Assembly: GCA_018920365.1 (NCBI GenBank)
Contig: JAHLMM010000001.1
Coordinates: 199,628 to 263,627, forward strand
Source: Candidatus Aenigmatarchaeota archaeon
Lineage (GTDB): Archaea > Aenigmatarchaeota > Aenigmatarchaeia > CG10238-14
DNA length: 64,000 bases
Direction: 5' to 3'
Positions within the stretch are counted from its first letter, which is position 1; the number at the start of each line of letters is the position of its first letter. Below the pieces are notes generated by a model. The model ran no database searches. It was given only the letters and a program-made list of their open reading frames with translations, and was not told the origin of the DNA. Shown in pieces: positions 5,537 through 57,845 of the stretch. Both the position numbers and the translations under genes were made by a program.

Positions 5537-6043
5537 ATGGCAGACGAAATTTTAGGAATTGTTTCAGCAATAATTATAGGAATTCTAGTATTTACATTAG
5601 GTTACAGACTATTATCAGTTTCAATAAACCAAGCCCATTATGAGAGTACTATACAGAACTTCAACAAACTTTATTCAAACATTCAATCAGTATGTCAGCA
5701 AGAAATTGGAAGCAGAACAATTATAAGATTTCAAGTGCCTATTGTTGTTAGAGTAATATACTTTACAGACGATAATACCAATGCTTTGCCTGCTGTCACA
5801 AATTTGATAGAAAATAGCCAGCAAAGTCAAGGAAAATATTTGTGTATGCAATTTAAAAAAGAACAGGATATAAGATGTGAGAAATTAAGTTGCAATGGAG
5901 TTATGCCATACATAGGCGCTTTGGAAGAATACAATGACTTGCAACTAATGGTCAATAAAATTCTTGGCAAACCTTTAATAAAAGAATATTTTTTGAATAT
6001 TGAAAAAAATATAAACAAAGATATCACAGTTACTGTTTCTTGA
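5537..6043 (+). CDS. Hypothetical membrane-anchored protein.
   Basis: The ORF-track start (5465) overlaps the tRNA. The likely start is the ATG at 5537 (MADEILGIVSAIIIGILVFTLGY…), a single N-terminal TM helix followed by a Cys-containing extracellular domain. Confidence 0.4.
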   Translation: MADEILGIVSAIIIGILVFTLGYRLLSVSINQAHYESTIQNFNKLYSNIQSVCQQEIGSRTIIRFQVPIVVRVIYFTDDNTNALPAVTNLIENSQQSQGKYLCMQFKKEQDIRCEKLSCNGVMPYIGALEEYNDLQLMVNKILGKPLIKEYFLNIEKNINKDITVTVS

Positions 6044-7256
6044 AATTAGTTTTAGCATATTTTATCATTTCTTCTCCTTGATCAAACCAATAATCAATGC
6101 CCCAATACACATAACAACTTGTTTCTGCAAGCAAGAGAGATTTTTTTGCAATATCACTTTTTTGTTTTAGATCATGAAATTCTTTGCTGAGCTGATCAAC
6201 TTTAGCTTTCATTTCAAGTCTTTTGTCACCAACAAGCCAATTTTGGTGACCACCTATCCACGACGATCCTTCGTCGGAAATTTCAACAATACTGCTAACA
6301 TCTATCTTTCCATTTTTTGCATAGTATTTTTGTAGAAATTCTGTCACGCACATTGATTCAACATTTTCATCTGTTTTGCTTGTGAAAAAAGGAACAAAAG
6401 TACTTCTAAAAAACTCGTTCATCATTACATTTCCATTTTCTCCGTCCGATGCAGGAACAACTAATGCAGGTTTTTTTGATGTATATGAAAAAATCTTGCT
6501 AGCTAGGACAGCTTTATCATATACACCTCCTGCGTCACAACCTGCTTGCTGATCAATAAAATCATATTTTACTTTGAAAATAACTGGAATTTTTTCACCG
6601 TTTGATTGAATAATATGTGGCTGACTTGTTATTGTCACTCTTTGCTCAAAACCAAGTTGCTTCTCACCTTTTAACGCCTCTACTGGTAGAATTATCCACT
6701 CATAACCATTTTCTTTTAGAATTTGTATAAGTGTTTCTAATTTTTTCCCACCAGGAACACCCATCTCAGGAAGCCAGAATCCTTTAATTCTTTGTAAATT
6801 TTTTTGGCCAAACAATTTTTTGAAAACATTTTTCCATTCTTTTATTTGCATATCCCAATCATCTTCAGGTGTTGCTGGAAAATAGCAATGAGAATAAGCT
6901 GTTCCAGCAAACTCAATAGCATCAGGATATTTGTCCATAACATTTTTATATAACTTTATTATATCTCCAATTTTTTCTCCATCTACATATGTTTTTTCAA
7001 GAATGTTTTTCATATCATTTAATGACTCAAGTAGTATGCCAGAAAAATCTAACATTATTTTTGGCTTAAATCCTTTTTCTGAAAGTTCTAATACATATTT
7101 TGCTGGATTTTTGTATGCTCTAGCCATCAATTTTGCTTCCCAAGATTCTTTTGAATCATTTGATTCGAGCATTTTTTGAAGATTGCTGATTAACCTACCA
7201 TTATGCCATACCATTGGCTGATGCATATGAAGCCATGGTACATATACAGATTTCAT
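6030..7256 (-). CDS. Glycoside hydrolase family 57-like protein (alpha-glucan active).
   Basis: N-terminus VYVPWLHMHQPMVW…KIMLDFSGILLESL resembles the GH57 HQP motif region. Confidence 0.55.
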   Translation of the reverse strand: MKSVYVPWLHMHQPMVWHNGRLISNLQKMLESNDSKESWEAKLMARAYKNPAKYVLELSEKGFKPKIMLDFSGILLESLNDMKNILEKTYVDGEKIGDIIKLYKNVMDKYPDAIEFAGTAYSHCYFPATPEDDWDMQIKEWKNVFKKLFGQKNLQRIKGFWLPEMGVPGGKKLETLIQILKENGYEWIILPVEALKGEKQLGFEQRVTITSQPHIIQSNGEKIPVIFKVKYDFIDQQAGCDAGGVYDKAVLASKIFSYTSKKPALVVPASDGENGNVMMNEFFRSTFVPFFTSKTDENVESMCVTEFLQKYYAKNGKIDVSSIVEISDEGSSWIGGHQNWLVGDKRLEMKAKVDQLSKEFHDLKQKSDIAKKSLLLAETSCYVYWGIDYWFDQGEEMIKYAKTNFKKQ

Positions 7257-7316: not shown

Positions 7317-8447
7317 ATGAATTGGAATTTACTTGAGAAAAAACTAGATAGTACAAAAATGAAGGAAAACATCCAAAGTCAAGGTAGATCTTTGTCATTA
7401 ACAATAAATAATGAGATAGAGAATATATCCAGAATATCGTCAAAAGTTAGAAATTGCAGAAATTTCATATTTTCTGGTTGTGGTGACAAACACATAGTTG
7501 ACCTAGCAGCTCAATTTGTTTGGAACAAAATATCATCAAAACCATTATCAGTAATTCAATCAAGATTGTTTGTAAATTATCCTAGCTATGTAGATAAGCA
7601 CACTTGTATGGTTTTTGTAACGCAGTCAGGAACCACTTTTGATACTATTGAAGCGTGTAAATTAGCGATAAAAAGAAACGCAAAAGTTGTCTGTATAACA
7701 AATTTAAAAGAAAATAAAGAATCAAGTATAGTTGATATTTGTCAAAATTATAGCAACGGTTATGTCATTAAAACGCATACAGAAATATATCCAGAAGAGT
7801 CTTTACCTAGCACATCAACATTTCACACAAGCCTTACTGCATTAAATTTATTTTCTATTTTTGTTAATAACAATCAATCTAGGCTTGCAGAGATTCAGGT
7901 AAATTATATTCCAAAGTTGGTTGATATATTAAGCAGGAGTGAAAAATTGAAAGAATTTTCAAAAAATGTTGCTAAAAGACTCAAAAATGTAGACGATTTT
8001 TATGTTTTAGGCGATGGACCAAGATATGTTTCTGCAAGAAAGGCAGCAAGGATAATGTTTATGGAGGGTTCAAAAACAAATGCTTATGATATAGAATCAG
8101 AGGAATTTATTCATAGTCTGATTGAAACAATAGAAGGTAAACCAAAAAATTTGATTTTACTCAAGCCACTAGATTTTTTGGATAAACCTATGCAGCTTTA
8201 TAAGATAATTAAAAATACATGGCCGCAAAAGATGGTGATAGAAATAGATCCTTTTGATTTTTTGGATTCAGATGCCAAATCATTATTTTCATCAGACGAT
8301 GCAGACGCACTTTCACCTTTTATATATACAATCCCGCTAGAATGGATAAGCTATTATCTTGCTTTATTAAAAGGCAAAGATCCAGGCAAAGGCAAGCTTG
8401 TCAACAAAATAAGAAGTCATGATAATGTAAAAAACTTTTTAACCTAA
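7317..8447 (+). CDS. Tandem SIS-domain sugar-phosphate isomerase. It resembles the GlmS C-terminus, so it may be an archaeal PGI/PMI or a glucosamine-6-P deaminase-type enzyme.
   Basis: The first SIS domain contains VFVTQSGTTFDTIEACKLAIKRNAKVVCITN. A second SIS-like segment is YVLGDGPRYVSARKAARIMFMEGS. Confidence 0.65.
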   Translation: MNWNLLEKKLDSTKMKENIQSQGRSLSLTINNEIENISRISSKVRNCRNFIFSGCGDKHIVDLAAQFVWNKISSKPLSVIQSRLFVNYPSYVDKHTCMVFVTQSGTTFDTIEACKLAIKRNAKVVCITNLKENKESSIVDICQNYSNGYVIKTHTEIYPEESLPSTSTFHTSLTALNLFSIFVNNNQSRLAEIQVNYIPKLVDILSRSEKLKEFSKNVAKRLKNVDDFYVLGDGPRYVSARKAARIMFMEGSKTNAYDIESEEFIHSLIETIEGKPKNLILLKPLDFLDKPMQLYKIIKNTWPQKMVIEIDPFDFLDSDAKSLFSSDDADALSPFIYTIPLEWISYYLALLKGKDPGKGKLVNKIRSHDNVKNFLT

Positions 8448-8487: not shown

Positions 8488-9957
8488 GTGACTTCAATAA
8501 TACTTGGATTTGAAATTCACCAACCTTTAAGAGTAAAACATCTTCCTGGACCAAGCGATAATTTGAATGATACTGAATTAATTGATCATTTTTTCAGCAG
8601 TAATGGATTGAATAAGTTTGTTTTTGACAGGGCATCTCAAAAATGCTATTATCCAACTACACATATATTGCTAGAACTAATAGATACATTTAAAGGGCAA
8701 AAAAGAGAATTTAAATGTGCCTTTAATATTTCAGGAGTTTGGCTTGAACAATGCCAAAAATGGCAACCAGATTTGCTAGAGTTGTTTAGACAAATAGCTA
8801 AAACCGGAAGGGCAGAATTTTTAGGTAGCACATATTTTCATTCAATTTCAAGTCTTTTTAAAAACAAGACAGAATTTGTAGAACAGGTTAAAATGCAAAA
8901 TCAAGCGATAAAAGATTTATTAGGCGTTAAACCATCAGTTTTTGTCAACACTGAAATGCTTTACAATAACATGATAGCTAAAATTGTTGAAGACATTGGT
9001 TACAAAGCCATATTTACAGAAGGTGTTGATAGAATTCTTGGTTGGAGATCACCAAATTATGTTTATGCAAGAGGCCCTGTTTCTGAAAATGACAAACCAT
9101 TAAATGAAAGGATTAAAGTCTTTACAAGAAACTATAGATTAAGTGATGATATTGGTTATAGATTTTCTTCAAAAGAATGGAACCAATGGCCATTGACAGC
9201 TGAAAAATATTCTATATGGCTTTCATCAACACCAGGCGATATCATACCAATATTTATGGATTATGAAACATTTGGGGAACATCAACCTGAAAGCAGCGGC
9301 ATATTCTTCTTCTTAAAAGCACTTCCATGGAAAGTATTTGATTGGAATAATTTGGATTTTGTTTTGCCTTCAGAAGCATCTCAGAAATTCAATGCTTTAG
9401 GTGAAATAGATGTTCATGAACTTTCAACAATTTCATGGGCAGATATGGAAAGAGATACATCAGCATGGTTGGGGAATTCAATGCAAAAGATGATTTTTGA
9501 TGAACTTGAAAGATTAGAATCTCTTGTAAAGCAAAACGGACAACAACATTTGAGAATGTGGCGTTTACTTCAACAAAGCGATTTGCTTTACTATATGTGT
9601 ACAAAATGGTGGAATGATGGCGATGTACACAAATATTTTTCACCTTTTTCAACTCCTCATGATGCATTCATAAACACTTTAGGGGGTTTAACAGAAATAA
9701 AAATGAGATTGATGAAAGATCTAACTTTGCTTAATTTGAATAAAGAGAGACAAGATCTTCAAAAGATATCAGTATCTTTGGAAACAGTGAAACAAGAAAA
9801 ACCAAAAAAACCAAAAAAAGAGAAAAGTGAATCTATCCAGTCAAGACAAGAACCAATAGAGTTTATACTTTCAGAACCAATGGAATATCCTAATACTTAT
9901 GTTAACATAGAAAATTTAATTGGTGTGTCAGATAGTTTGAAGAGAAGAATCAGATAA
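8488..9957 (+). CDS. Glycoside hydrolase family 57 (alpha-amylase / 4-alpha-glucanotransferase-like).
   Basis: N-terminus ILGFEIHQPLRV… matches the GH57 catalytic-domain start. The text FMDYETFGEHQ is GH57-like. The C-terminus has a K/E-rich tail. Confidence 0.7.
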   Translation: MTSIILGFEIHQPLRVKHLPGPSDNLNDTELIDHFFSSNGLNKFVFDRASQKCYYPTTHILLELIDTFKGQKREFKCAFNISGVWLEQCQKWQPDLLELFRQIAKTGRAEFLGSTYFHSISSLFKNKTEFVEQVKMQNQAIKDLLGVKPSVFVNTEMLYNNMIAKIVEDIGYKAIFTEGVDRILGWRSPNYVYARGPVSENDKPLNERIKVFTRNYRLSDDIGYRFSSKEWNQWPLTAEKYSIWLSSTPGDIIPIFMDYETFGEHQPESSGIFFFLKALPWKVFDWNNLDFVLPSEASQKFNALGEIDVHELSTISWADMERDTSAWLGNSMQKMIFDELERLESLVKQNGQQHLRMWRLLQQSDLLYYMCTKWWNDGDVHKYFSPFSTPHDAFINTLGGLTEIKMRLMKDLTLLNLNKERQDLQKISVSLETVKQEKPKKPKKEKSESIQSRQEPIEFILSEPMEYPNTYVNIENLIGVSDSLKRRIR

Positions 9958-31573: not shown

Positions 31574-32509
31574 TTATTCTAAAAATTCAACTTCATCTAT
31601 AATTCCGTCTGAATCTTCATCAACACCTTTGACAACCTTTGCTATAGACTTGCTGTCATTTATGTTCCCTGACTGTATTTCTGTTGAATGCTTTATTAGC
31701 GCGATGGTTGCAGACAAAGTTCCTCTGAAACCCATTCCAGAAAGGAATAATACTTCCCTTTCTTCATTAAAAGGGTTTTTTATTCTACAAATAACTCCTA
31801 TTTCCTTTTCTCTGTAAGTTTTTTTTGACAAAGTTGATATTATTGTCCAATCCTTTATTTCTTCAGAATAATCAAAGTAAATTGGTAACTTTTCATTTAT
31901 TTTTTGAGTAATTATGTTTGTTTTTGGCCCGCCGACCAATATCAAATTTTTCTTCAAATCCGATTCATTAACTTGAGTATCAAGCTTGTAAATTGGTAGA
32001 TTTATTTTGTTTATAAACTGTCCAAAATATGTGCCCAATAATATAACCGAATAACCATCAGAAGCAGATGCTTTATATTTTCCATGAGGATCTGGGCTAC
32101 CTACTATTATTAGCGAATTTAATTTTGCATCTTGAATGAATGGTGATAGAAATTTTGTTTCCAAAGGTTTTGTTTTTATAGAATAATAATGATCCTCATC
32201 AAAAATTTTGAATGATATTGACGGGGATGTTAAAGAATATATTTTTGCCGTTGCACCAACCCTCTCTTCAACTCTTTCCAATTTTATAAAACCATACTTC
32301 TCTAATCTTCTTATATGATAGTATATTTTTTGTTCATGTTGTTTTAATTTTCTAGCTATATCAATTGCACATTGTGGTGAATTTGTCAACTCTTTAAGTA
32401 TTTTAAATGATAAATCAGATGACAAAGCAGACAGAGCCTTTTTGTCTTTAATCATCAAAGTATTGAATATTTTTTGTCCTTTGCCTGTTTCTTCAACTAA
32501 AAACTCCAT
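31574..32509 (-). CDS. Winged-HTH transcriptional regulator with an uncharacterised C-terminal domain.
   Basis: N-terminal wHTH (LSFKILKELTNSPQCAIDIARKLKQHEQKIYYHIRRLEKYGFI). About 200 aa follow. They contain repeated LI(I/L)VG(S/G)P motifs. Confidence 0.5.
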   Translation of the reverse strand: MEFLVEETGKGQKIFNTLMIKDKKALSALSSDLSFKILKELTNSPQCAIDIARKLKQHEQKIYYHIRRLEKYGFIKLERVEERVGATAKIYSLTSPSISFKIFDEDHYYSIKTKPLETKFLSPFIQDAKLNSLIIVGSPDPHGKYKASASDGYSVILLGTYFGQFINKINLPIYKLDTQVNESDLKKNLILVGGPKTNIITQKINEKLPIYFDYSEEIKDWTIISTLSKKTYREKEIGVICRIKNPFNEEREVLFLSGMGFRGTLSATIALIKHSTEIQSGNINDSKSIAKVVKGVDEDSDGIIDEVEFLE

Positions 32510-32650
32510 ATATTAAAATATAATATAAAACATTATAAACTTTATTTTAATGGTTAAGCTAAATTTTTTGACTAATTTTTAGAAAAATTTTCTTTTTTGT
32601 TATGAATTTTTTAGGAATTTTTTATATAGATTTTTTAACAATTTTTATTA

Positions 32651-32708
32651 GCAGAGTTAAGAGGGGGCAAAACCTTCGGGGTGGGCAATAAAATTTCGCG
32701 CCCCCTTA
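32651..32708. other. GC-rich inverted repeat / stable hairpin in an AT-rich intergenic region upstream of glmS.
   Basis: Sequence TTAAGAGGGGGC…(CC-TTCG-GG)…GCGCCCCCTTAA. It has a ~10-bp GC-rich outer stem and an inner C(UUCG)G tetraloop hairpin. Confidence 0.3.
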
Positions 32709-32754
32709 AAAAATATTCAATTCTAAATTTTGCATTTCGGCGAATTGTGATTTA

Positions 32755-34491
32755 ATGTGCGGAATATTTGGTTATTTTGGAAATGATGCAATGAAAAAAA
32801 CAATAGATGCTTTAAGTTTTCTTGAATATAGAGGATATGATTCTACAGGAGTTGCATTCTTACAATAAGACAATCTAGTCATATTAAAATATCTAGGATC
32901 ACCATCCAAAGTATCATGGAATGTAAGACCTAGTTCTGCTTGCATAGGTCATACTAGATGGGCTACTCATGGAAAAGTGACTATACAAAATGCTCATCCA
33001 CATACTGATTGCTATAATAGAATAGCAGTAGTTCACAACGGTACACTTGAAAATTACATAGAAATAAAGAAAGAACTTGAATCAAAAGGCCATAAATTTA
33101 ATTCAGAAACAGATACAGAAGTTATATCACATCTCATAGAAGAAAATGTTCAATGTGGAATACCTTTAAGAGATGCAATAATAAAATCTTTGAGAGATAT
33201 AAAAGGATCTTACGCAATAGCTGTTTTAAGCAAATATGATCCGAGAATTGTAGTAGCAAGAAATTCAAACCCAATTTTTGTGGGATTAGACGGGATTAAC
33301 AGATGCATATGTTCTGATATACCTACGTTGAGTTTGTATTCTGAAAGTATGATACCTTTGGATCCTTATGAAATTGCTTTTGTTGGTGATAGCGTTGAGA
33401 TTTATGATTTTAGTGGTGAAAGAATTGAAAGGAAACCCATTCAAATTAAATCAATTAAAAATAGAATATCTTTGGAAGGATATAAGACATACACAGAAAA
33501 GGAAATTTTTGAGCAACCTCAAGCATTATCTGATTGTTCTACTGTAACTGAAAATGAATTAAAGCCAATAGTTGATTCTATATTAAACTCAAACAGATTA
33601 TACATAGTTGGTGCTGGTACTTCTTATCATGCCGCTCTAATAGGAAGTTATATTTTTCGAGATGCTGGTATATTAAGTGAATCAATACAATCCCAAGAAT
33701 TTCCATTTAAATCAGTTGTTGATAGTAAAACAACATGTATTTTTCTTTCTCAGTCAGGAACAACTGCAGATACAAATAATGCAATAAATTATGCTAGCCG
33801 TGCGAGAAAAATAGGCATAGTGAATGTTTTTGGAAGTGAAATGGAAAAATATGTCGATTATGTTGCATATACAAGAGCTGGACCTGAAATAGGTGTTGCT
33901 TCAACAAAAAATTTTTTAAACCAAGTATATTTGCTTAATCTTTTGTTTTTGAAAATATGTGAACGAAGAAACATTGAAGTTAGCTACGTTAAACGAGATT
34001 TTTATAATATGCCTAGATATGTTGAAGAAATATTAAGAAACGGTGTACCAGAAAAAATAATACTACAACTATTGCAAAACAATCCAATATTTTTAGGTTT
34101 AGGGCCAAGCTACCCAGTTGCATTGGAAGCTGCATTAAAATTTAAAGAGCTTACATATATGGATGCTATTGCTTATTTCTCAGGTGAATTAAAACACGGT
34201 CCGTTGGCAACTGTTTTTGAGGGAAGAAATATCGTATCTATAAATCCAGAACAAAACAAAACAACTAAAATAAATTTGGAAGAAGCAAAATCAAGAGGAG
34301 CTAAAATAATAAACATAGGATCTGAAAATGAATTGTATGATTTTTGCATCAATGTACCAAATGTTTCAATTTCTTTAACTCCAATAGTTTCAATAATTCC
34401 AGCCCAATTGTTCGCATTAAAAGTTGCTGAGAAACTAGGCAGAGAAATTGATAAACCTAGAAATTTAGCAAAAAGTGTTACAGTTGAATAG
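32755..34491 (+). CDS. glmS: Glutamine—fructose-6-phosphate aminotransferase, interrupted by one in-frame TAA at 32866–32868.
   Basis: The start is ATG-TGC…, giving MCGIFGYFGNDAMKK…GYDSTGVAFLQ. After the stop the text continues NLVILKYLG…HTRWATHG in the same frame as the tracked ORF 32977–34491. Two C-terminal SIS domains are present (LSQSGTTADT). The protein ends …VTVE. Confidence 0.8.
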
Positions 34492-34492
34492 T

Positions 34493-36208
34493 CTACATTA
34501 TTTCAGGCGCTTCTATTCCAAGAATCCTGAAACAATTTTCTAAAACTATTTTTGTTGATTTTGTCAAACTCAACCTAAAGTTTTTCTTGTCTTCATTTTC
34601 CGCTTTCAAGACAGGACATGAATGATAAAATTCACTGAAACAAACAGCCAAATCATAAACATAATTACATATTAAATTTACTTTCAACTCTTTTTCTGCT
34701 TGAATAACAACATCAGGAAATTCTATCAGTTTTTTCAAAAGCAATTTTTCCTTCTCATCGAAATCATTTATCTTAAATTTCTTTATCATTTTATTTTTTT
34801 CTAAAATACTTTTGCATCTTATATATGCATACTGTATATATGGTCCTGTATTTCCATCAAAACTTAGCATCTTTTCCCAGTCAAATGTAATCAAATTTTT
34901 TGTGTCTATTTTAAGTATGGCATATCTTAATGCACCTATTGCTATTTTTCTTGCAATATCCCTTTTCTTTTTTTCAGGAAGTTTGTTCCTTTTTTCAGTC
35001 TCTTTTAATGCAAGTTTTTCAAGCTCTTCTATGACTTGATCAAGCATTATGGCTCTACCTTCTCTTGACGACATTTTACCTTCAGGTAAAACAACATGTT
35101 CAAATGATAGATGATGACAATTTTCAACCCATTTGTATCCTAAAAGTTCAAGCGTTTTAAAAATCTGTGAAAAGTATAATTTTTGTTGTGATGAAACAAC
35201 CCAAATAGATTTATCAAGATTATATTTTTTAAATTTGTGCAAAGTTAATCCAAGATCGCTTGTTTGATATAAGCCAGTGCCGTCAGATCTAAGTAATACA
35301 AAATTAGGTAATCCATGCTTTTCTAAATCAGCAACTATTGTCTGATTTTCTGATTTAAATGCAACACCTCTTTTTAATGCTTCACTAACAAGTCTTTTAC
35401 CTAAATCCCTATAATCGCTTTCATAAAAGTAAATATCAAAATCAACACCGATTTTCTTGTAAGTTTCTTTAAATCCATCAATACACCAATTTACTATTTT
35501 TCTCCATAATTCTGATACATGTTTATCTTTTTCCAATTCAAACTTTCTTAGCATCTCTCTTGCCTTTTCTTCGAGCTCTGGTTTTTCTTTTGCTTCTTTA
35601 TGAAATTTTACATAGAAATCCCATAGCCACAAATCTGCTTTACCTTTTGGTTTTTGATTATTACCCCAAAGTGTATATGCAGTAACAAGTTTTGAAACCT
35701 GAAAACCCATATCATTCATATAGTTTGCTCTTATTACATTATACCCATTAAATTCAAGTAAATTTGAAAGAGCATCGCCCAACAGAGTAGTTCTTGCATG
35801 TCCTATATGCATTGGATGAACAGGATTAGGTTGTGAAAACTCTACCATTGCTTTTTTACCTTTTCCTATTTCAGACTTGCCATAATTCTTGTTTTTATTT
35901 ATAATCTCTTTTATTGTCAATTCAGATATTTTAGAGTAATTGAAAAAGAAATTTATGTAAGCACCAACTACCTCAACCTTTCCAAAAAGTGAATTTTTGA
36001 TATCAATTTTTTTGGCTATTTCATTAGCTATTTCATTAGGATTTTTTCTCAATTTTTTTGCCAGTTGAAAAGCAATTTTGCAGCTTAAATCTCCAAATTC
36101 TTTTTTTGCTGGTACTTCTATGCTGCTTTCTATATCCTCATATTTGACATAGTCTATTTTTTTCAACAGTTTAACTATTTCTTGCTTTGACTTTTTGTTT
36201 AGATTCAT
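34493..36208 (-). CDS. argS: Arginine—tRNA ligase.
   Basis: The class-I HIGH motif is PMHIGHARTTLLGDAL. An anticodon-binding DALR-type C-terminal domain is present. The protein is 571 aa. Confidence 0.9.
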   Translation of the reverse strand: MNLNKKSKQEIVKLLKKIDYVKYEDIESSIEVPAKKEFGDLSCKIAFQLAKKLRKNPNEIANEIAKKIDIKNSLFGKVEVVGAYINFFFNYSKISELTIKEIINKNKNYGKSEIGKGKKAMVEFSQPNPVHPMHIGHARTTLLGDALSNLLEFNGYNVIRANYMNDMGFQVSKLVTAYTLWGNNQKPKGKADLWLWDFYVKFHKEAKEKPELEEKAREMLRKFELEKDKHVSELWRKIVNWCIDGFKETYKKIGVDFDIYFYESDYRDLGKRLVSEALKRGVAFKSENQTIVADLEKHGLPNFVLLRSDGTGLYQTSDLGLTLHKFKKYNLDKSIWVVSSQQKLYFSQIFKTLELLGYKWVENCHHLSFEHVVLPEGKMSSREGRAIMLDQVIEELEKLALKETEKRNKLPEKKKRDIARKIAIGALRYAILKIDTKNLITFDWEKMLSFDGNTGPYIQYAYIRCKSILEKNKMIKKFKINDFDEKEKLLLKKLIEFPDVVIQAEKELKVNLICNYVYDLAVCFSEFYHSCPVLKAENEDKKNFRLSLTKSTKIVLENCFRILGIEAPEIM

Positions 36209-49205: not shown

Positions 49206-49296
49206 TAGCCCCGAGCGGATTCGAACCGCTGTCAACGGGTCCAAAGCCCGCTATCCTTGGCCATTGTCCTGGTTAAACCATCTAGACGACGGGGCT
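49206..49296 (-). tRNA. tRNA-Gln (anticodon TTG) with a ~17-nt insertion in the D-loop, a putative non-canonical intron.
   Basis: Minus-strand sequence AGCCCCG-TC-GTCT-[AGATGG TTTAACCAGGACAATGG CCAA]-GGAT-A-GCGGG-CTTTGGA-CCCGT-TGAC-AGCGG-TTCGAAT-CCGCT-CGGGGCT-A. It has the A1-U72 pair and discriminator A typical of archaeal tRNA-Gln. The total is 91 nt. Confidence 0.7.
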
Positions 49297-57304: not shown

Positions 57305-57427
57305 ATATTATTGACCCCCTGTAGCTCAACGGTAGAGCATTCGGCTGTAGGCATTTGCATATGCATTTGCCACCGGCATTTGCTCGCAGAAACCGAAGGG
57401 TTGCTGGTTCAAATCCGGCCGGGGGGA
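57305..57427 (+). tRNA. tRNA-Tyr (anticodon GTA) with a 51-nt intron at the canonical 37/38 position.
   Basis: The C1–G72 pair is the archaeal/eukaryal Tyr identity element. D-arm GCTC-AACGGTA-GAGC. Anticodon stem TTCGG/CCGAA with loop CTGTAG-[intron 57341–57391]-A. T-arm GCTGG-TTCAAAT-CCGGC. Discriminator A. Confidence 0.8.
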
Positions 57428-57504: not shown

Positions 57505-57630
57505 ATAATCACATGGTTGGCGACCAAAACGAAAAGGAAACACCCGTTCCCATTTCGAACACGGAAGTTAAGCTTTTCGGTGATTTGAGTTGTACTGCAT
57601 TCGTGCGGGAAGCTCAAGACGTTGCCAACC
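57505..57630 (+). rRNA. rrf: 5S ribosomal RNA (unlinked, standalone).
   Basis: The text GGTTGGCGACC…CACCCGTTCCCATTTCGAACACGGAAGTTAAGC…GTACTGCATTCGTGCGGGAAGC…GTTGCCAACC has the conserved archaeal 5S loop-C / helix III-IV sequence. The 5' and 3' ends are complementary (helix I). Confidence 0.85.
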
Positions 57631-57723
57631 AATTACGCTTAAACGGTGACCTATTATTGATTAAAAGAGCCCACCCCCAAAATATAAATTTTATAAAGTT
57701 CTTAAATAAAAAATCAGTTATTT

Positions 57724-57827
57724 GCTCTGGTGGTGTAGCTCGGCCTAATCATATAGAGACCAATCATACGGGACTGTCATCATATGGCAGAACTCCCGTG
57801 ACCCGGGTTCAAATCCCGGCCAGAGCG
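57724..57827 (+). tRNA. tRNA-Asp (anticodon GTC) with a 13-nt canonical-position intron and an additional ~16-nt insertion in the D-arm region.
   Basis: Acceptor GCTCTGG/CCAGAGC with discriminator G. T-arm CCGGG-TTCAAAT-CCCGG. Anticodon stem CGGGA/TCCCG with loop CTGTCA-[TCATATGGCAGAA]-C. The D region is ~19 nt too long. It contains a duplicated CC(T)AATCATA segment. The total is 104 nt. Confidence 0.7.
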
Positions 57828-57845
57828 TATACAAAAGGTGATTAA

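Follow-up and report, generated by a model that had tools for sequence, protein, structure and literature searches.

Among bacterial genes regulated by RNA, glmS is a classic example, and we know of no archaeal counterpart that has been described. Early reductive genome evolution in symbionts yields young pseudogenes that carry a single lesion, and termination-reinitiation occurs in archaea. Near-cognate misreading of UAA is rare; a UAA followed by G is the tightest type of terminator in eRF1/aRF1-type systems, and A-rich −1 and −2 positions favor leakiness in eukaryote-type termination. Among archaea, readthrough has been recorded solely for UGA/Sec and UAG/Pyl (reviewed in PMC8211752). The GlmS enzyme does not accept free ammonia, which is unusual among amidotransferases, and its Cys1 is essential (PMC9272926).

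Here, we analyze a glmS gene that is split by one in-frame TAA. It lies in a 64-kb stretch of DNA from a hot-spring member of the Aenigmatarchaeota (DPANN), with a GC content of 31%, which we call the window throughout. The window encodes archaeal housekeeping proteins (RadA, RPA, ATP-dependent DNA ligase, an archaeal ThrRS with its editing domain, SMC/ScpA, diphthamide synthase, and deoxyhypusine synthase) and carries one intron-containing tRNA and a solitary 5S rRNA; in a protein search, the closest GlmS proteins all came from Aenigmarchaeota/Aenigmatarchaeota MAGs. The explanation that we favor, with a probability of roughly 60%, is a genuine and very recent nonsense mutation (TCA, Ser38, to TAA) that would have abolished glutamine-dependent GlcN6P synthesis in a thermophilic Aenigmatarchaeota population.

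Results

One glmS gene with a stop at codon 38

The locus comprises the following features.

32755-34491, + strand: whole glmS frame, from profile matches and alignment with E. coli GlmS
32755..32865, + strand: glmS codons 1-37, with Met-Cys (the Cys1 nucleophile) and the LEYRGYDS motif
32866..32868, + strand: premature in-frame TAA at codon 38, read from the sequence
32869..34491, + strand: glmS codons 39-578 and the TAG stop (34489-34491), with no further lesion
32881..32883, + strand: ATA codon (Ile43), the NCBI-annotated start of a 536-aa "GlmS" (P0121) that lacks Cys1
32977..32979, + strand: GTG, the first canonical in-frame start past the stop and the start of a 504-aa ORF (P0001) in a Logan assembly
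31574..32509, − strand: divergent gene for a protein with HTH (ArsR-like) and S-layer-like domains, a neighbor of glmS conserved across Aenigmarchaeota
34493..36208, − strand: intact gene for arginyl-tRNA synthetase, convergent with glmS and directly adjoining its stop

From the ATG at 32755, 37 sense codons encode MCGIFGYFGNDAMKKTIDALSFLEYRGYDSTGVAFLQ (MCGIFGYFGN...GVAFLQ) and are followed by TAA, after which the same frame stays open for 540 more sense codons, up to the TAG. The second segment completes the glutaminase domain and continues with two SIS domains and, at the C terminus, the DKPRNLAKSVTVE tail. When the stop is masked, the 578-residue translation scores 554.8 bits against NF001484 (cutoff, 381; residues 1 to 578 onto positions 1 to 601 of 601) and 546.1 bits against TIGR01135 (cutoff, 418), Pfam assigns a class II amidotransferase domain and two SIS domains, and E. 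coli GlmS (4AMV) aligns with it across residues 1 to 609. A Cys stands straight after the initiator Met, with MCGIFG at 32755 aligning to MCGIVG of E. coli GlmS, and this Cys1 is the sole catalytic residue of the glutaminase site. The equivalents of the isomerase residues Glu488, His504, and Lys603 are intact as well (KFKEL, ELKHGPLA, and NLAKSVTVE align with E. coli). Judged from this end-to-end profile match and the E. coli alignment, the segments on the two sides of the stop belong to a single glmS gene, share its frame, and have not come together by chance, which bears out the description in an earlier note on this DNA of 37 codons with the Cys, a TAA at 32866-32868, and 540 further codons. 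No single uninterrupted ORF links Cys1 to the isomerase domain, the TAA lying in between. Codon 38 maps to the variable β-hairpin turn D38-A39-E40-G41 of E. coli GlmS, between two β strands.

Codon 38 in relatives and in other assemblies

Of the relatives with an intact gene, MAG SKW179 (GCA_026414305.1) is the nearest; its GlmS has 580 aa and is 71% identical, and its genome is fully syntenic with the window across ∼20 kb. The earlier note had called for a comparison with sister genomes; this finds TCA (Ser) at codon 38 in both strains of the sister species (L002 and L025). Since the TAA of the window aligns without gaps to the TCA (Ser38) of the SKW179 sister species, the alignment indicates that the stop arose by a single C-to-A transversion at 32867. 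A sense residue occupies codon 38 in all of the 120 aligned homologues, glmS is uninterrupted in all 8 other close relatives, and the GlmS proteins of relatives among the matches listed are uninterrupted at 579 to 661 aa.

The same TAA is present in three public assemblies of the locus, as follows.

Logan assembly of SRR27215045: a 504-aa ORF is called from the GTG
GCA_038999715.1: identical truncated GlmS
A second NCBI MAG (394,136-nt contig, matched to MAG DRTY-6_1 bin 65): identical truncated GlmS

MAG DRTY-6_1 bin 65 (0.75 Mb, 31.6% GC) was recovered from a January 2016 sample of the DRTY-6 spring at Tengchong, taken at 50°C and pH 6.1 (PMC8407114). The earlier note had listed a sequencing error among its explanations, and an assembly or sequencing artifact, or a captured minority variant, would mean that the real codon 38 is a sense codon, probably TCA. 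The Aenigmarchaeota MAGs of the Tengchong springs are rare members, at <0.4% relative abundance (PMC8407114), so coverage could be low, and glmS is otherwise flawless. The stretches of these assemblies that were compared with the window, of 12 to 21 kb, match it at 100% identity. The identity of the three assemblies, complete over 19 to 21 kb and possibly owed to overlapping read sets, counts both for an artifact and against a genuine nonsense mutation. However, the three assemblies that agree on the base differ in contig structure (20.6, 274.6, and 394.1 kb) and in pipeline, substitution errors in Illumina consensus sequences are rare, and just ∼5.6% of the possible substitutions in glmS create stops. 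Nor is an intact allele on record for the species: none was found among ∼15 billion proteins, exact patterns spanning the stop matched no sense-codon strain variant in JGI metagenomes, and the 90% protein cluster of the interrupted GlmS consists of only the two truncated forms. A sequencing error keeps a place among the explanations, but the concordance of three assemblies leaves it, and an artifact in general, quite improbable.

The interrupted gene shows no decay

The whole glmS frame contains neither a frameshift nor a second stop. An alignment of 120 homologues has 127 columns with a conservation of 95% or more, and the window GlmS deviates at 7 of them (5 to 12 in intact controls); the intact sister has 4 of these deviations too, and the other 3, found in this lineage only, are conservative (L to I, R to K, and G to A). 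When the window GlmS was compared with that of the intact sister by Tajima relative-rate tests with eight outgroups, the counts were balanced (37:38, 35:25, 29:32, 20:29, etc.) and no test was significant. dN/dS against the sister species is 0.25 in codons 1 to 37, where 70% of the amino acids are identical, and ∼0.2 in the remainder of the gene. Without a second disabling lesion, neutral evolution since inactivation is limited to at most ∼0.9 to 1.9% divergence at the 95% level, assuming an indel-to-substitution ratio of 0.05 to 0.2; dS to the sister species is ∼0.9. The promoter box and the leader upstream of the interrupted gene are also conserved.

An old, decaying pseudogene is ruled out by the single lesion, the balanced rates, the retained conserved columns, and the similar dN/dS on both sides of the stop. 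Because no decay is visible in glmS, its promoter, or its leader, these comparisons indicate that the lesion either is very young or sits in a gene that is still selected despite it. The earlier note had named downstream disabling mutations as a sign of a true pseudogene, and we found none; its description of the lesion as very recent agrees with the lack of a second lesion and of rate acceleration and with the intact conserved residues and promoter/leader region.

TAA as a stop codon and the case for readthrough

The 18 genes that are syntenic with SKW179 end in TAA (9 genes), TAG (5 genes), or TGA (4 genes), and most, though not all, of the 18 match their orthologues in length; the TAA-ended genes stop at the length of their SKW179 orthologues (e.g., 311/311, 137/137, 291/291, and 250/250 aa). 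Genome-wide reassignment of TAA is ruled out by this half of the syntenic genes, in agreement with the earlier view of TAA as a normal stop that is unlikely to be recoded. Scanning the window for long same-frame segments split by one stop revealed no other interrupted gene, the remaining segment pairs being separate neighboring genes or overlaps with opposite-strand genes, and ∼1 interrupted gene in 60 corresponds to an ordinary pseudogene load.

A different reading of the locus is that near-cognate tRNAs, such as Gln-UUG, Tyr-GUA, or Lys-UUU, or a recoding device of a new kind let enough ribosomes past the UAA for full-length GlmS to stay active and selected. The lack of any decay in gene, promoter, and leader is equally expected of an expressed, selected gene, and the stop lies in the turn of a variable surface hairpin, where any inserted residue should be tolerated; both points speak for readthrough and against a nonsense mutation. 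The codon before the TAA is CAA, and A-rich −1 and −2 positions of this kind would favor leakiness, whereas the base after it (+4) is G, which makes the stop one of the tightest type. Orthologues lack the stop, with TCA at codon 38 in both sister strains, and half of the neighboring genes end in TAA. No significant stimulatory RNA structure was found around or after the stop (fold z = −0.35 and −1.14 against shuffles). The tRNAs of the window are ordinary, namely, Val(CAC), Tyr(GUA), with an intron of ∼40 nt, and Gln(UUG), the last two being tRNA-like matches that ARAGORN had missed, and no suppressor tRNA with a UUA anticodon is among those of the 64-kb window. Some interrupted archaeal genes have proved to be expressed, but UAA is not a type of stop known to be recoded in Archaea, where the documented cases are of the UGA and UAG types (PMC8211752). 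The programmed readthrough raised in the earlier note is therefore unsupported with respect to conservation, codon type, RNA structure, and suppressor tRNAs in the window, and we consider readthrough by any of these routes very unlikely. Our expectation is lower still that it maintains GlcN6P synthesis with the interrupted allele stably kept under purifying selection; if true, UAA readthrough in glmS would be the first functional case in a cellular archaeal gene.

A ribosome hop between the two ACAAT repeats that flank the stop was also considered and rejected: landing on the CAA at 32871 leads out of frame, with a TAG soon after.

Restart products and the stand-alone SIS gene

The earlier note had placed the next in-frame ATG at 32977, but that position reads GTG, and the first in-frame ATG downstream of the stop comes only at ∼codon 199. 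Reinitiation at 32977 would, as the earlier note had foreseen, yield a product that lacks the Cys1 nucleophile, although from GTG and not from ATG. Given that no canonical in-frame start occurs within 108 nt past the stop, efficient termination-reinitiation past codon 38 appears unlikely from the sequence.

Even so, a reinitiated protein (536 aa from the ATA at 32881, or 504 aa from the GTG at 32977) might keep an activity of the isomerase half, as a sugar-phosphate isomerase or a GlcN6P deaminase-like enzyme, and the locus would then have changed function. Termination-reinitiation has precedent in archaea, both SIS domains are intact together with the three isomerase residues named above, stand-alone GlmS-isomerase-like proteins exist (that at 7317-8447 in the window and the GlmD/NagB-II families), and NCBI annotates the 536-aa form as a protein and not as a pseudogene. 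Against this stand the missing canonical start in those 108 nt and the sequence ahead of the GTG at 32977, in which we saw no Shine-Dalgarno-like element when reading by eye. Starting at residue 43 or 75 would remove core Ntn strands and leave a crippled N-terminal stub of 160 to 200 residues, on an enzyme that makes no use of free ammonia (PMC9272926). The balanced substitution rates and the sequence as a whole give no sign of adaptation to a new role. We regard a change of function as improbable.

The gene at 7317-8447, which the earlier note thought could matter if glmS is dead, encodes a stand-alone protein with two SIS domains and no amidotransferase domain. This protein is closest to the isomerase domains of GlmS (84 bits to NF001484, below the cutoff; PDB 2POC, E = 1.6e-14) and is more weakly similar to archaeal PGI/PMI. 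The gene is flanked by two GH57 genes, and its protein has >30 orthologues in Aenigmarchaeota MAGs at 50 to 79% identity. As a member of a clade-wide and not lineage-specific family that lacks the amidotransferase domain, it is ruled out as a substitute for glmS, and neither its domains nor its neighbors nor its orthologues show signs of compensation, so the relevance once suggested for it falls away.

A conserved leader element upstream of glmS

Two features lie upstream of the coding sequence.

32613..32629, + strand: BRE/TATA-like promoter box AGGAATTTTTTATATAG, from a comparison of six Aenigmarchaeota spacers, with a presumed promoter function
32653..32718, + strand: structured leader element with flanks, an 8-bp GC-rich outer stem around CAAAACC-N4-GGGGUGG

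Between the divergent HTH/S-layer-like gene and glmS, the leader element stands out as a GC-rich stretch of ∼45 nt in a spacer that otherwise has 24% GC. Its core is GGGGGCAAAACCTTCGGGGTGGGCAATAAAATTTCGCGCCCCC, and it lies ∼25 to 30 nt downstream of the AGGAATTTTTTATATAG box. The same element is found upstream of glmS in five more loci from four other species, whose GlmS proteins are 47 to 71% identical. Across the six sequences, the interior CAAAACC-N4-GGGGUGG is invariant, and pairing in the outer 8-bp stem is complete (100% of cells), with compensatory double changes at 4 of the 8 pairs (GGGGGC/GCCCCC to or from GGGAGAC/GTCTCCC); when the 3′ partners were slid as a control, pairing fell to 44 to 63%. 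A covariance model of the element gives one match per Aenigmarchaeota locus, at 67 to 81 bits (78 bits for the window), and none in the rest of the window or in 20 non-Aenigmarchaeota glmS loci. Rfam, including RF00234, had no match in 32400-33100 at the gathering threshold or at an E value of ≤10, and none in the leaders of the relatives; a motif scan of metagenomes returned chance matches only, such as ciliate telomere repeats.

With six sequences from about four lineages, the element is best taken as a lead and not as a demonstrated riboswitch, and a rival reading is a DNA-level palindrome bound by the neighboring HTH protein. The conserved promoter box and leader show that the regulatory region of the broken glmS is still intact.

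Two further observations concern these leaders. In three species, a 39-codon uORF encoding a CxxC...CxxC zinc ribbon lies between the element and glmS and ends 5 nt ahead of the glmS ATG; neither the window nor its sister species has this uORF. A more distant clade (L056 and L057) has a different leader with a long hairpin and has the 3′ string AAUUUGCGUCU in common.

Discussion

The interruption of glmS is a real but ordinary event. Under the nonsense-mutation reading that we favor, the C-to-A change at 32867 would turn Ser38 into a stop, and ribosomes would terminate after 37 residues. Any product restarted at the ATA (32881) or the GTG (32977) would lack Cys1 and the first strands of the Ntn fold. 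Because Cys1 would be absent from the restart products and GlmS does not use NH3, GlcN6P synthesis from glutamine would be lost, bar any trace of full-length enzyme made by basal near-cognate misreading of the UAA. On one hand, such a loss may be tolerated, since a host-associated DPANN cell presumably obtains hexosamines from its partner, with dispensability being assumed here. On the other hand, the allele may be a transient, mildly deleterious variant that happened to dominate the sampled population.

Provided that the mutation is real, the locus is a snapshot of reductive evolution, in which a symbiotic archaeon of 0.75 Mb has just lost de novo synthesis of hexosamine, the UDP-GlcNAc precursor, and would be expected to rely on a partner for its amino sugars. 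The public annotation gives a 536-aa "glutamine--fructose-6-phosphate transaminase" that starts from ATA and lacks the catalytic Cys, so automated metabolic reconstructions will wrongly score the pathway as present. The main interest of the locus lies in this annotation caveat, in the view that it gives of a DPANN symbiont losing a gene, and in the leader RNA, whose hairpin, conserved and covarying across Aenigmarchaeota glmS loci, is the more forward-looking lead.

Compared with described systems, the window gene is closest to GlmS/GFAT (TIGR01135; E. coli 4AMV, 1JXA, and 2J6H), which it matches over the full profile and in its Met-Cys, HTRWATHG, HNG, and TDTE motifs, its two SIS domains with SQSGTTADT, and its DKPRNLAKSVTVE tail. 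Unlike in those enzymes, the frame is cut at codon 38, and the polypeptide with the N-terminal Cys cannot be made by standard decoding. Like the genes recoded at UGA (Sec) or UAG (Pyl), it is a conserved archaeal enzyme gene with an in-frame stop, but its codon is UAA, is not conserved, has no downstream element that we could find, and falls in a variable loop and not in the active site (PMC8211752). The Sulfolobus solfataricus fucA1 gene is another seemingly interrupted archaeal enzyme gene, yet it is split by a frameshift and expressed by programmed −1 frameshifting at a slippery heptamer with a stem-loop (PMC1616953, PMC8211752), whereas the frame of the window glmS is unchanged and carries no recoding signal. 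The glmS ribozyme/riboswitch of Gram-positive bacteria (RF00234) shares with our locus a structured, conserved RNA in the glmS 5′ leader; the leader of the window has no sequence or structure match to it and is an element of just ∼45 to 50 nt. Finally, the young single-lesion pseudogenes of host-dependent or niche-restricted microbes differ from the present case in that dependence on a host for hexosamine is an assumption here and that the allele is known from consensus assemblies alone. The window gene resembles them in its one point lesion in an otherwise intact and syntenic gene, in the functional orthologues of close relatives, and in its occurrence in a DPANN archaeon with a genome of 0.75 Mb.

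The glmS leader and its variants

The glmS gene, which carries an in-frame TAA at codon 38, is preceded by a GC-rich hairpin conserved in Aenigmarchaeota, immediately upstream of which lies a conserved promoter-like box.

Leader elements upstream of glmS
window 32613-32629: conserved BRE/TATA-like box
window 32653-32718 (+): glmS 5' leader hairpin
L002 9884-9949 (sister species, intact glmS): leader hairpin
L025 2883-2948 (second strain of the sister species): leader hairpin
L026 2795-2860, L027 2797-2862, L028 2800-2864 (further Aenigmarchaeota): leader hairpin
L026 ~2870-2990, L027 ~2872-2992, L028 ~2876-2996: zinc-ribbon uORF, 39 codons, CxxC...CxxC
L056 ~160-235, L057 ~510-585 (more distant Aenigmarchaeota clade): different, longer hairpin leader

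The hairpin occurs as a single copy at each locus, its outer stem shows covariation at four of eight pairs around an invariant interior (CAAAACC-N4-GGGGUGG), and it has no match in Rfam. We propose it as a candidate cis-regulatory RNA; in a rival reading the element works at the DNA level, as a palindrome to which the divergently encoded HTH protein (window 31574-32509, -) binds. The near-identical long leaders of L056 and L057 have only the 3' string AAUUUGCGUCU in common with the window-type element.

In three species, the zinc-ribbon uORF sits with the leader hairpin on one side and glmS on the other, and its end lies 5 nt upstream of the glmS start codon (ATG). Window 32719-32754 lacks this uORF, which has been deleted in this lineage, and the sister species (L002) retains a 9-codon remnant.

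Annotation and divergence of glmS

Public annotation (NCBI MBU5689778.1 and MEM5791953.1) records a 'glutamine--fructose-6-phosphate transaminase' of 536 aa, whose start codon is a non-canonical ATA (window 32881) and which is without the catalytic Cys. This entry carries no pseudogene flag, and hexosamine synthesis will therefore be overcalled in pathway reconstructions.

Compared with L002, window 22732-44359 forms one syntenic block of strikingly uneven divergence, with identities of 85.6% (22.7-28.5 kb), 78.4% (29.2-41.0 kb), and 92.4% (41.0-44.4 kb), and dS falling from ~1-2 to 0.3-0.6 over the last four genes; this pattern may reflect recent recombination between the two species. Within the block, GlmS (32755-34491; 71% amino-acid identity) ranks with the faster-evolving genes, at a dN/dS of 0.21 compared to 0.02-0.09 for most neighbors. 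The extra change is shared in equal measure by the intact sister lineage, and fast GlmS evolution therefore characterizes the clade rather than resulting from the stop.

Other genes in the window

Stable RNA genes
49206-49296 (-): tRNA-Gln(UUG), 91 nt
57315-57427 (+): tRNA-Tyr(GUA), with an intron of ~40 nt 3' of the anticodon
57516-57630 (+): stand-alone 5S rRNA gene, 88 nt downstream of tRNA-Tyr(GUA)

ARAGORN calls neither tRNA at these positions. The D-loop region of the tRNA-Gln(UUG) carries an insertion of ~17 nt that may be a non-canonical intron; the only version that Rfam aligns lacks the D-arm and scores 29.5 bits. The listed ORF 57513-57845, which overlaps the 5S rRNA gene, is presumably spurious.

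Two-SIS gene and its neighbors
6030-7256 (-): GH57 glycoside-hydrolase gene
7317-8447 (+): stand-alone two-SIS protein
8488-9957 (+): GH57 glycoside-hydrolase gene

An earlier note had raised the two-SIS gene as possibly relevant if glmS were dead. Because it is embedded between two GH57 genes, its product, with more than 30 orthologues across Aenigmarchaeota, probably acts as a sugar-phosphate isomerase within a glycogen/gluconeogenesis cluster; its nearest relatives are the isomerase domains of GlmS.
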